This document shows positions 19,530 through 38,174 of a stretch of DNA of 64,000 nucleotides, one piece after another (the stretch's first letter is position 1; every line of letters begins with the position of its first letter). The translations under genes and the position numbers were made by a program. Source of the DNA: Octopus sinensis (Eukaryota); assembly GCF_006345805.1 (NCBI RefSeq), contig NC_043003.1:41044001-41108000 (forward strand). The letters run 5' to 3'. The notes beneath the pieces are model-generated. The model was not told where the DNA came from. It worked only from the letters and a program-made list of their open reading frames with translations, and did not search any database.

Positions 19530-20735
19530 AGGAACAGGTTGATCATAAGATCCTTCTGAGAAAGCTGTCCAATTGGTGTCACTGGAAAGCTGCTGCAATG
19601 GATCAAGTGCTTCCTGTCTAACAGAACCCAACATGTTGTAGTCGAAGGAGTCAAATCCAGCCCAGCCAAAGTCAGCAGTGGTGTCCCACAAGGCACTGTG
19701 TTGGGCCCACTTCTCTTCATCATCTACATAAATGATATTACTGACACCATCAAACACAGTAACATCAGAACCTTCGCTGATGATTCCAAGCTCCAGAAGG
19801 TCATCAATGGTGTGGATGACCGAATAAACCTTCAGTCAGACCTACTGGCTGTTGTCCAATGGGCGGAAAAGAATAACATGTTGCTAAATGAAGACAAATT
19901 CGAACTGATCCACTTTGGAAGGGAGGACGCTCTGAAACTCCCATACTCACTTCCTTCTGGAGAAATTCTCATGGCATCCAACAACATCAGAGACCTGGGA
20001 GTAACAGTGGACAACAACATAAGCTGGGCTACACATATAAGCAGCAAAGTTGACATGGCCCGCAGAATGTGTTCCTGGATACTCAGAACCTTCCAGTCGA
20101 GAGATTCCCACGCTATTATCCTTCTCTTCTCCACTTTTGCCCGACCCCACCTTGAATACTGCTGTCCACTGTGGTCTCCCTACACAAAACAAAATATTAT
20201 GAGAATTGAAGCTCCCCAAAGGTCAATCACAAAATAGATAGATGGCATGTCAGACCTTGACTACTGGGGTAGACTAGAGAAGCTGAAATTGTATTCACTG
20301 CAACGACGCCGTGAACGCTACATTATCTGTATGATGTGGAAAATATTCCATCAGCACTGTCCGAATGATGCTGGCATCACCTTCAAAATGCATCCAAGGC
20401 TTGGACCACGTGCCATCCGTCCACAACAAAAATCTAAATCACATCACATAACGACAATACGGCACAACTATTTCACCTCAATTGGACCCGCTCTCTTCAA
20501 CATTACACCAGGACACGTCAAAAAAGAAACTGACCACACAAAATTCAAGAAGTCTTTGGACAAATTCCTTCAAACAGTACCGGACAAACCACCCACACCC
20601 GGATATGTCTCCGCAAACAATAACTCTCTGCTCGAATGGGCCTTGGTGCCCAAATCCTGAACTGAAAGACTTCGCCAGGTGGTGCTATTAAGTTAGACAT
20701 GGCCTGGGCCAATACTGACCAAAAACCTTTCTAAG
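19530..20735 (+). mobile_element. 5'-truncated CR1-type LINE, relatively young (RT C-terminal half + 3' UTR)
   Basis: [78 protein letters not shown]. ORFs 19698-20237 and 20247-20660 are in frame across a single TAG. Confidence 0.93.
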
Positions 20736-34250: not shown

Positions 34251-34740
34251 ATATATATATATATATATATATATTTCTAAATACCCATGGTCAATATAAT
34301 TCAGTTCAATTCAGATATATATTCTTATAAGTAACCTCCCGAAACCTGTGTATTTAGTTTGAATAGTTATCCTAAACGGAGACGAGTACCAAAGTTTAAA
34401 ACTGGTTCGCTTGGACAACTGAGGAGATCTCTTCTATTGAAATCCATTGGTTACTTTCTTAATCCGCAAAAAAATTTAAATTATTCACTTATATCTTATT
34501 GAACTCTCCTTCTCATTGTTGAATACTACCGTATGTTTCAAACTGAAGGATTATTCAATACATTTGGTAAGGTACAAATTTATTATTGCTTATCAAGAAC
34601 AGTGCTGACGGTGCCTTAGGCCAGCTAAATCGTCATCGGAGAGCTTTCAGTCGAAGACTTATATGCCCTATTATTAGACTATTTTCATTAGTTAATTGGC
34701 GGTGATCGCTATAAGCTGTAAGCTTATAAAATACTATTAT

Positions 34741-34770
<30 letters not shown>

Positions 34771-34775
<5 letters not shown>

Positions 34776-35606
34776 CAGGGCAAGACTGCTAGGTAGTCGG
34801 CCGTATGCTAGAAATAGATCATCAACGATCAAACTAGAGCCAAGACATTTGAAATTTTATCCCTAATGTAATCGGTAAATTTAAGCACGTGTCTGTCTTG
34901 GCACAGAAAGCTGGGGTTAGTTTTTTCAGATTGCATTTACACTGAACGAATGCACTGATGAAGCCACGGACATTTGAATTATGTAAGTAATTCTTTTGTT
35001 AAAGGCCGAAATCGAGGTATGCATTTAATTCTGTTTTTTATATAAATTTTCATCTGTCCTGCCAGCCAAATTTGGTTCTGGTGTTCGCTGAATTTTTCCT
35101 CTAGAGAATTTCCTTTGTAGTTTGATCGTTGATGATCTATTTCTAGCATACGGCCGACTACCTAGCAGTCTTGCCCTGCCAATATACACATATATTAGAA
35201 TTTACTCTGACTTCTCAGATTTTTTGTATGCTAGGCTACTGGTTTTAAATTGATATTGAAATTAATATTAATTTATCTCCCTCATTATTTAAATATTGAA
35301 ATAAATACGTTCTCTAGTAGTAAGCACTAACCGCAGTGAATTATTTACTGCAGTCCTTCGCTTCAGGAATTTCTTAGCGGGCCAGAGCCAAGACATTTGA
35401 AATTTTATCCCTAATGTAATCGGTAAAACTAAGCACGTGTCTGTCTTGGCACAGAAAGCTGGGGTTAGTTTTTCAGATTGCATTTAGCAGTCTTGCCCTG
35501 CCAATATACACATATAGAATTTTCTCTGACTTCTCAGATTTTTTGTATGCTAGACTACTGGTTTTAAGTTGATATTAAAATTAATATTAATTTATCTCCC
35601 TCATTA
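34771..35606 (+). mobile_element. Non-coding HHR-bearing element with a 66-bp perfect inverted repeat and a partial tandem duplication
   Basis: IR 34771-34836 / 35118-35183; direct repeats 34836-34939 = 35384-35486 and 35163-35287 = 35485-35606; flanked by (TA)n. Confidence 0.85.
34949..35025 (+). ncRNA. Type I hammerhead ribozyme motif (canonical CUGAUGA)
   Basis: AATGCA-CTGATGA-AGCC..(gaatta/taattc hairpin)..GGCC-GAAA-TCGAGG-TA-TGCATT; 6-bp stem I, GUA site; A.C mismatch at the base of stem II. Confidence 0.75.
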
Positions 35607-38174
35607 TATATATATATATATATACACCTATACACAAACACGCACATCCCACATCACGAACACGCTCCTCAACATCCATACGTTTTACTATCGAATTTAT
35701 TATTATTATTATTATTTTATATATATATATATATATATATATTCTTAGTTTCGGTCCAAGAATCGCGGCCACAATCAGATACATATAAACTCTTTCTCGT
35801 TGTTGCTCATAGTTTCTGTTTCCTTTTCCTTTTTTATATACTATTTTATTTCTCTCTAGCTTCCGTAATTTTTACCACTTTTTCTGTTGTTTCTATCGCT
35901 TCCCACATTCTAACATGTCTATCATCTCTACTTTCCTGCACCAACTGCATTTCTCCTCTCAAACTATTCTTTGTCTCTTACGTTCTTTCTATTCCAAATT
36001 ATGCCTCGGCTTCACTTGTCTTCTGTCCTCTAAAACATGTTACTGCAGTCACACCCCCTTCATCGGTCACTGCCTGCTATTCCATCTCATTTCCCATGGT
36101 TTTCGATTCGACTTCCATTACATTTTCTCTACTAAAACTTTCCATTAAACCCATTCCCTTCTCCTAAATCCACATGCCTATCACACTCCGTTCTGCTTTT
36201 CCAAAAGCACCTTCAACTAGTTCCATTACTTGCATCTTCCTCCTGGTTCGTCCTCTTGTCATTTACCACCTGAATTGTCAAATTTGCCATTTCATCGCCT
36301 CCATTACGCTTCGCGAACTGAAACCCACCCCATCCTTCTTGCAGTCCCAAGTAACATCTACCATCAACGCCACTCCATTTCTCCTACCCTCCCTTGTCCC
36401 TCCCACTATTCCCGCCCTTGTACTTCTTACAATTTACTAATCCGTTTGTCTGTCCTTGTTTGTCCCCTCTGTACTTCTTACAATTTCCTTAGTCCCCTTT
36501 TCCAACTCATATTTTTGTCCCATTTCTATGCCAAAGTAAAATTTGAAGCCAACCACATTCCTTCCCCCTTTCAATATTACCTTCATTTAAGCGAGTCCAC
36601 AACCTCTGTAACAGTTCTTAACTTTTCCTTCTTTTTAACCTTGTCATCCTCCCGCTTTGCTACTTTTTTCGTTGCCATACCTTTCTTTATCTCTCAAACA
36701 CCCATGTATCTCTAGTGACCTGACAAATGCGCTCCTATTTTGCCCTCTCTAATTTTATATCTAATGGATTATAGGTTCGAAAGCAGCTCAGAAACATCCG
36801 ACTCGGCAACGGGTTTCCAGTCTCAGAACACTTTCACGCCACTGATCAATTCTCTGACGTGTCCAGGTTGTTGGAGCGGCTGCTCTCACTCCGTTCTCCC
36901 AGCACTCGCCTCCAGATGGAACAGCTTATGATATCTTCGAACATATACATTTAATCTGAAATTTCAAACTTTTCTTCCTCTTCCACTCCAAAGTTATACA
37001 CATTTTTCGTTGATCACCCCGCCTTCTCTTAAGCCGATCTCTTGCCGCCCATTGACACTCCCACCTCCCTCACTACCTTCCAACCGATCCATATAATCTG
37101 ATAACATTAACAAAGTTTCATCATACACAACTCCCTCACCGCATCTTCACACCTTTTATATATACACGCGCCTTTAATCTCTTCTACCCTATTGCCTCGT
37201 TGATGTAACATTCACAGACACATACCAACACAACTTCGTGCTGACATACACACACACATCTCTTCACATACCCCACTTCTGCAAATTTAGACTTACACTC
37301 ATGGCCATGCATCCAACATGTCGTCTGCCCAAAATTATTTCCCACTCACACACATACTCTCGCACACATAGTTTCTCATTCACATACTTTTTTTCTTCCC
37401 TCCCTAACTCTTTGCTTGTCGATTGTGTTTCACACCTTTGCCACCAACATTTAAACTTTCTATCACATGTGCACACTCACAATCACACACAAGCGCGCGT
37501 ACTCACACATACACATACACGCACGCACGCGTACACACACACATATCACACAAATACATGTACACGCTTAGAGGCCAGCAAAAGGAACTGATAGAATAAG
37601 CAGCGGGTTTATAAAGATATCCATAATTACGAGGCAGGGACAATTTCTTCGACGAAAACCCTTGAAGTAGGTGACCTAACAAGGTTGTAGTCGAATGATT
37701 GAAACAAGTAACCGCTAAAAGATAAATGATAATCAATATTCCAATTAAATTCATGATTTCTTAAAACTACCTTCGTTTCTATAGAATGAAGGCAACCACC
37801 TAACTCTCATTGCAACAGTCTTTCACATAGAGTGAAAGTTAATCTGGGGGAATTTGCAATCCTCCGGTGTTTTTTAGACAAGAGGGTGATTCTACATCTA
37901 TGGGCTCTCAGTATGCTCTTTTAACAATTTGCTTTTAATTTCGTCCATTATATTACTGCAATTGTTGCGCTGCTTTCTTGCCGAGTTTGGAGTCTGACGG
38001 AACACATGAAAATAATAAAAGTGATTAAGCCAGGGCCAGTTTTGTATAACTAGAAGTGCGTTATCTAATGCTTATTTATCTTTTGTAGAAGACGTGTTCC
38101 ATTTGAGAGACATTTCAGTTATTTCGTGATGGCTGAACGACAAAATAGAATAACTCTCTCTCTCTCTCTCTTAC

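Follow-up and report, generated by a model that had tools for sequence, protein, structure and literature searches.

Between two (TA)n microsatellites of the Octopus sinensis genome lies a short stretch that combines a hammerhead-like motif, a partial second copy of its own sequence and an inverted copy of one of its segments. What kind of element is this, and how was it inserted? The window analyzed here is a stretch of 64,000 nt (C7:41044001-41108000) from an assembly of 2.72 Gb in 13,516 contigs, and positions refer to it unless unit positions are given. A preliminary description of the window had proposed a retrozyme-like unit of about 548 nt that was reverse transcribed more than once around a circular or multimeric RNA, and had likened its layout to insertions of Penelope-like elements (PLEs). 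We consider it highly probable that 34771-35606 represents a single insertion from a dispersed family of hammerhead-bearing units that lack coding capacity and measure 543-548 nt. The insertion would have been made in trans by a Penelope-type reverse transcriptase/endonuclease, likely by priming on both strands of a nicked (TA)n tract and by copying more than one unit of a circular or multimeric RNA.

The insertion and its predicted hammerhead

Self-comparison of the window bore out the layout proposed before (Table 1). Block B, said to recur with a period of 548 nt, does so at 98% identity (34836-34925 and 35384-35473, spacing 548), and the next block pair (34922-34939 and 35469-35486, spacing 547) extends it to 104 nt in total. 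The inverted repeat had been described as 66 bp long, free of mismatches and bracketing the hammerhead. Indeed, 34771-34836 and 35118-35183 are perfect complements, and the repeat encloses 281 nt. Its full arms are 78 nt long and 97% identical (34759-34836 and 35118-35195), and both mismatches sit where the left arm merges with (TA)n. Past the second B, the end of block A recurs at 100% identity (35163-35194 and 35485-35516), as does block C at 90% (35196-35308 and 35515-35627). Since the A end and C directly follow the second B, unit 2 is without unit positions 105-327 and jumps from unit position 104 to 328. The reading that the hammerhead, block D and most of A were deleted from the second unit was therefore correct. 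The outer ends of the insertion lie at unit position 360 on the left and 473 on the right; the short terminus also has a copy inside unit 1, where it is not an end.

Table 1. Features of the insertion and its flanks, in window positions.
Feature	Positions	Strand	Basis
(TA)n microsatellite, left flank (target)	34744-34772	.	sequence, self-comparison
Inverted, 5'-truncated arm, unit positions 283 to ~351-360; outward end = 'short' 3' terminus	34771-34836	-	
Complete 548-nt unit 1	34836-35383	+	other genomic copies 85-96% identical
Type I hammerhead motif, predicted cut after 35019	34941-35034	+	sequence, covariation, own covariance model 120.5 bits
Internal copy of the 'short' 3' terminus: small GC hairpin, then CAATATACACATATAT (unit positions 330-360)	35165-35195	+	fold, end counts
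'Tail' segment, unit positions 361-472, with an AU-rich hairpin (11-13 bp) followed by ATCTCCCTCATTATTTAAATAT	35196-35307	+	fold z -2.4
Unit 2, positions 1-104	35384-35486	+	self-comparison, mapping
Junction of 223-nt deletion (unit positions 105-327, ribozyme included)	35486-35487	+	private to window copy
Unit 2, position 328 to ~465; 'tail' 3' terminus at its end	35487-35606	+	
(TA)n microsatellite, right flank	35606-35624	.	sequence, self-comparison

Among 40 places scored of 280 candidates, the deletion junction was matched across only at the window's own place. On these 40 places, a subfamily defined by the deletion was rejected, the junction being private to the window copy. The perfect inverted repeat had also been taken as a sign of a recent event. 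This is weakly supported: the two units of the window differ at about 8 places in about 230 nt, so that finding no difference in 66 nt has a chance of about 0.1.

The absence of coding capacity and the (TA)n on both flanks were confirmed, as no ATG-started ORF longer than 65 amino acids overlaps 34771-35606. The unit has a GC content of 35%. The window copy has no terminal direct repeats besides the tandem units themselves, and no LTR, primer binding site or polypurine tract. It is without an ORF for reverse transcriptase and GIY-YIG endonuclease and hence non-autonomous. Elsewhere in the window, a 179-amino-acid ORF (19698-20237, plus strand) gave a sub-threshold match to RVT_1 (25.4 bits, cut-off 29.6). 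It is probably a decayed retroelement unrelated to the hammerhead unit.

The hammerhead motif was read from the sequence, and our own covariance model gives no second one in the window. Its helix I is formed by GAATGCA and TGCATTT, plus an outer 3-bp extension past a small internal loop. The box CTGATGA (34955-34961) leads into helix II, which is closed by GCC/GGC and carries a 44-nt insert with a hairpin of its own (GAATTA/TAATTC), and GAAA follows at 35009-35012. Helix III has 2 bp and the loop CGAG, and after it comes GTA, behind which cleavage is predicted (35019/35020). When the window copy is folded to minimum energy, helices I and II are regained (z -1.9). The Rfam models gave no hammerhead in the whole window at gathering score and none in 34300-36100 at E<=10, a miss that is likely caused by the 44-nt insert in helix II together with the 2-bp helix III.

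To assess pairing, we wrote the structure by hand and counted pairs in an alignment of 40 distinct versions of the segment from 30 genomic loci. Paired cells amounted to 90.3%, as against 28-41% when partners were slid by 1-3 columns. Six pairs vary on both sides, with 36 such cells compared to 15.0 +/- 2.4 in shuffles, and the covariation score was reached by none of 500 shuffles. At pair 12-96, for instance, 23 copies have CG and 17 have AU; at pair 16-91 the counts are 31 for AU and 6 for UA, and at pair 30-72 they are 23 for UA and 7 for CG. As such changes track subfamilies, they represent a few events, not dozens. The core is well kept: of the 40 rows, 38 have the box as CTGA(T/A)GA, 38 have GAAA and 39 have an A before the cut. 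The T/A position of the box is the one free position of the hammerhead core. Judged from these copies, we take the motif to be genuine and maintained by selection across the family, and self-cutting is predicted; the hammerhead of the preliminary description is thus conserved with compensatory changes.

Two positions of the window copy depart from a regular structure. Natural hammerheads usually have a G-C pair at 10.1/11.1. In the family, this pair is A.C in 25 of 40 copies, the window copy among them, A-U in 11 and G-C in 4. Owing to the A.C pair, the predicted activity may be weak, or may require a dimer or a protein. A U.G at 15.2/16.2 occurs in the window copy only, of the 40.

A dispersed family and the ends of its arrays

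A search with the 836-nt stretch returned at least 272 matches (40 places scored of 2191 candidates). We mapped the unit onto 30 returned loci, which correspond to 24 independent insertions on 17 contigs. All mapped insertions are head-to-tail arrays that repeat every 543-548 nt and hold between about 1.3 and 7 units, in agreement with the constant period of about 548 nt that the preliminary description had suggested looking for in other copies. Colinear monomers with fixed ends were not seen among them.

The two kinds of array ends behave differently. Outward 3' ends (n=36) fall on two places, 18 at unit positions 355-362 and 13 at 461-473, which we refer to as the short and the tail site. 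The remaining five lie at 86, 185, 218, 327 and 536, the last being an artefact of the locus edge. Nearly all outward 3' ends with a visible flank adjoin (TA)n, and those at 185 and 218 likewise sit at TAT or TATA. In contrast, the 11 5' ends lie at ten distinct places (1, 5, 21, 29, 29, 88, 178, 217, 404, 451 and 486), and four of them adjoin sequence other than TA. The earlier suggestion of circularly permuted start points consequently holds for the 5' ends; the 3' ends instead use two fixed internal sites, as in PLE reverse transcription (PMC11167929). Each of these two sites comes after a hairpin and a UA-rich patch in the predicted fold. Target-site duplications are unreadable inside (TA)n.

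In 13 of the 24 insertions, including that of the window, an inverted arm stands head to head with the direct arm, so that both outer ends are 3' ends. The partial tandem with an inverted cap, pointed out before as a PLE-like layout, is thus a recurrent arrangement. The arm varies in length from about 45 nt up to several units, and 11 insertions are without it. Nine two-ended insertions have both ends at canonical sites, and eight of them pair one short end (~360) with one tail end (~472). If ends were independent at their pooled frequencies, at least eight such pairs in nine would have a chance of about 0.017 (binomial).

Units within an array have a median identity of 97.9%, and units of different arrays 91.4%. 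Substitutions private to one unit number 131. Neither A>G (13) nor T>C (15) is in excess among them, and edited RNA copied back into DNA was therefore rejected as their source. Fragments of the family are also present in assembled contigs under four organism labels. One 573-nt contig overlaps itself after about one unit, although tandem DNA would look identical.

Putative priming and the template of the arrays

The layout of the window copy can be accounted for by the following series of steps. Arrays would be transcribed, the ribozyme would cut the transcript into 548-nt monomers, and a cellular ligase may close these into circles. A PLE ribonucleoprotein would then nick (TA)n, and the TA 3'-OH would anneal to the UA-rich patch that follows either hairpin (unit positions ~345-360 or ~462-472), so that the cDNA would start inside the RNA. 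On the left strand, cDNA would begin at the short site and stop after about 70-80 nt, giving the inverted cap. The cDNA of the right strand would begin at the tail site, copy unit positions 473-328, skip 327-105, copy 104-1 and continue through one whole further unit. Finally, the two cDNAs would meet head to head with a 1-nt overlap at 34836.

A self-complementary target such as (TA)n would allow priming from either DNA strand, which would explain the frequency of two-strand priming. For the inverted cap, a second cDNA primed on the opposite strand is a better explanation than a template switch. Of the earlier proposal, namely reverse transcription more than once around an RNA with template switches, the repeated copying agrees with the multi-unit arrays, and a template switch at the cap is the part that we would replace. 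A more specific reading is possible, though we regard it as doubtful: the family may be the read-out of a paired Penelope enzyme, in which the two nicked (TA)n strands use a single RNA, the first starting at the short site and the other at a second site about 110 nt downstream, the RNA being a 548-nt circle that is read repeatedly and sometimes a dimeric circle. If true, paired priming would account for the tail being confined to one end in almost all two-ended insertions, and a dimeric circle would yield arrays in which every second unit matches.

Which form of RNA was copied is a separate matter. We rate a circle read repeatedly at roughly even chances, an uncut linear multimer at somewhat less than even and jumps between separate monomers as improbable. 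None of the 11 5' ends lies at the cut position 185, the nearest being 178, and every array reads through this site, which argues that templates were either uncut or re-joined. Differences within arrays are mostly private to one unit (274 versus 148), so arrays were likely uniform at birth. Junction or indel columns account for many of the 148, and therefore the counts of private and common differences are uninformative on template form, either way. The nearest relative of a unit (n=71) is in its own array in 49 cases and elsewhere in 19, with three ties; a single array on C8, young and close to the consensus, explains the 19. As the main subfamily is very young, a uniform donor array would give the same picture, and this test cannot separate a circle from a uniform multimer.

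The same element and enzyme may accordingly have worked on an uncut linear multimeric transcript of a donor array, with no circle involved, which we take as a serious contender that falls short of our favor. It agrees with the lack of 5' ends at position 185, and a weak 10.1/11.1 pair may leave much of the RNA uncut. The main in vitro substrate of the anole PLE is unprocessed RNA, and ribozyme mutants insert equally (PMC11167929). Within the window, the differences between the two units (about 8 in about 230 nt) stand beside a cap that is identical to unit 1, which also suits a multimeric donor. On the other hand, daughters copied from linear templates can only be shorter than the donor array, and multimers would still have to be rebuilt in some further step; moreover, circular retrozyme RNAs are abundant in other animals according to the excerpted text of PMC7229834.

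Three further observations touch on the template. Two arrays, G000:C2:174458638-174461609 and G000:C1:189038555-189041141 (loci L013/L017/L022 and L028/L029), show a period-2 order, with units two apart agreeing at 11 of 13 informative sites. A dimeric circle or template would fit this order, and a later block duplication would fit it as well. The two-unit array L011 (G000:C3:21599156-21600076) is a mosaic that runs from window-like to L007-like and back to window-like sequence. Its switches lie at unit positions 386-397 and 173-223, the second interval holding the predicted cut site, and both copy choice between RNAs and later conversion would fit. In L019 (G000:C16:46782340-46782490) the outward end of the inverted arm lies at 184/185, the predicted cut, and is joined to (TA)n. 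It is the only one of the 36 ends that could mark the 3' end of a cleaved RNA.

Alternatively, the family could be a plain satellite, its 548-nt period maintained by unequal crossing-over and segmental duplication without an RNA intermediate and the hammerhead being a passenger. Head-to-tail units with a constant period fit this reading, and so does the agreement of units two apart in the period-2 arrays, as block duplication gives. Satellites bearing hammerheads are also known from newts, schistosomes and cave crickets: satellite 2 of newts, Sm-alpha of Schistosoma and pDo500 of cave crickets are tandem units of a few hundred nucleotides with a type I hammerhead and a short helix III, thought to act in pairs. 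Unlike the long blocks of these satellites, the 548-nt family consists of dispersed short arrays with ends of the retrotransposition type: the 24 mapped arrays hold about 1.3-7 units and are scattered over 17 contigs, 31 of 36 outward ends lie at two fixed positions beside (TA)n while the opposite ends are cut off at ten places, and 13 of 24 insertions have an inverted arm with its own fixed end facing outward. Crossing-over does not predict fixed 3' ends, varied 5' ends and inverted arms, and we consider a plain satellite very unlikely.

Hardly credible is a MITE-type DNA transposon, in which the 66-bp inverted repeats would be terminal inverted repeats, TA the target-site duplication and the second partial unit a neighboring fragment: the perfect 66-nt repeat around 281 nt with TA on both sides suggests it, but in other copies the arm measures about 45 nt to several units or is absent (11 of 24), the outer ends are usually unlike (360 versus 472), and block C comes after A in both window units and in all arrays, so that the inverted repeat is not terminal. 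Both the satellite and the MITE were rejected on these grounds. We return to the reading of an insertion made by a Penelope-type enzyme.

Known retrozymes and the Penelope-like elements of the same genome

Animal non-LTR retrozymes are, in the excerpted text of PMC7229834, non-coding, low-GC tandem units of 150-450 bp that have type I hammerheads and are expressed as circular RNA. A preprint survey from 2026 (Li, Clavereau and Pollet; 10.64898/2026.07.22.740005) gives units of 51-972 bp and a relation to PLE terminal repeats. As far as these excerpts describe them, the 548-nt family agrees in its non-coding low-GC tandem units, in the dispersed dimers to multimers with one type I hammerhead each, in the 2-bp helix III with a tetraloop, as in invertebrate and axolotl motifs, and in a proposed dependence on PLEs. 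Relative to the same partial texts, the unit of 548 nt exceeds the 150-450 bp of the 2020 paper and falls within the 51-972 bp of the 2026 survey, and the 44-nt helix II insert with its hairpin and the A.C at 10.1/11.1 in most copies set it apart. From its features, the family is an animal non-LTR retrozyme with a Penelope footprint and thus of a known kind. Since animal retrozymes and the Penelope footprint are both in print, it does not represent a new kind of system. Our literature search returned no paper that describes hammerhead retrozymes in cephalopods by title or abstract.

The footprint itself resembles insertions of PLEs that carry the endonuclease (EN+). The excerpted account of Craig et al. 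(2021; PMC8557442) reports that insertions are strongly truncated at the 5' end, form partial tandems, lie beside an inverted 5'-truncated copy and often have a tail of 30-40 bp at one end only, and that (TA)n is a preferred target of Naiads. The partial tandem, the inverted 5'-truncated copy, the optional tail at one end and the AT-rich or (TA)n target all recur here, to the extent that the excerpt covers them. Purified anole PLE protein cuts and extends both DNA strands and prefers AT-rich DNA (Frangieh et al., 2024; PMC11167929). Its reverse transcription has two internal start sites on the RNA, which delimit the tail, and ribozyme cutting is not required in vitro (PMC11167929). Two fixed internal start sites and a hammerhead upstream of the 3' end are thus common to EN+ PLE insertions and the 548-nt family. 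Differences are that the 548-nt unit has no ORF, that its tail of 102-112 nt is about three times the 30-40 bp given in the excerpted source, and that it has no similarity to the PLE copies sampled from the genome. Furthermore, the start site of the anole PLE is non-homologous to its target (PMC11167929), whereas the start sites of the 548-nt family look homologous to TA and we propose TA/UA annealing.

Plant LTR retrozymes, as the excerpt of PMC4918200 presents them, are likewise non-autonomous and hammerhead-bearing, with spread via circular RNA proposed. Unlike the family studied here, they are described in this excerpt with type III hammerheads in LTRs, a primer binding site, a polypurine tract and Ty3-type enzymes, and none of these is present here.

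For the question of how copying by Penelope enzymes begins and ends, the family is a clean set of natural data. Its strengths are two sharp start sites about 110 nt apart, the pairing of short and long ends in 8 of 9 cases and a self-complementary target. The hammerhead, with its unusual A.C closing pair and long helix II, could be tested for cleavage.

Candidate enzymes are plentiful in the same genome. We found at least 147 GIY-YIG matches above the Pfam cut-off (150 scored of 5029 candidate places), and PLE ORFs reach 883 amino acids with the endonuclease at the C-terminus. Of 14 PLE copies fetched with flanks, 13 end in ...TTTTTTAC(A/G)AA directly on (TA)n, so enzymes in this genome make exactly such junctions. 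A partner matched by sequence was searched for in several ways. The unit gave no match to 30 GIY-YIG loci at E<=0.01, and in 14 PLE loci of 5-6 kb one weak match of 96 nt at 71% identity (L076:81-167). The latter was rejected as a partner: it lies 2.2 kb from the ORF and is the (TA)n-adjoining end of a different non-coding element. From the tail, a 19-nt module (up to 3 substitutions) was found at this L076 place only in 44 PLE loci, compared to 90 matches in 30 loci of the family. Smith-Waterman alignment of the unit to two PLE 3' ends scored 27 and 25, inside the range of shuffles, whose means were 21.7 and 21.4 and whose maxima were 30 and 38. Altogether, no sequence-matched autonomous partner was found in 44 GIY-YIG loci, which represent few PLE families of the 5029 candidate places.

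Our covariance model scored weak hammerhead-like places in two PLE loci, L034 (26.5 bits) and L045 (21.9 bits). The former (L034:2602-2699, plus strand) has the same build, with a 2-bp helix III and a 4-nt loop, and lies on the strand opposite to a decayed PLE endonuclease match. As the L034 place is on the opposite strand and that of L045 is unassigned with respect to strand, neither shows a partner. Rfam matches in 12 of the 14 long PLE loci (E<=0.1) were limited to microsatellites resembling microRNA families, one tRNA and a single look-alike of a snoRNA.

The 14 PLE loci (L067, L068, L070-L080) comprise two related autonomous families that have the last ~125 nt in common. About 75-100 nt before the PLE end, they contain TTGATAAGGTTC...GAAC(T/C)GAAACATGT. 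Inspected by eye, it resembles a hammerhead in which C3 is replaced by T and G8 by A and whose helix III loop is palindromic.

The other non-coding element in L076 has two ends (L076:81-167 and L076:175-260) in opposed orientation on either side of a (TA)n/(CA)n tract. One of them carries the module ATGCTAGGC(C/T)ACTGGTTTT, which it has in common with the tail of the 548-nt family. This module may be a signal near the start site of reverse transcription.
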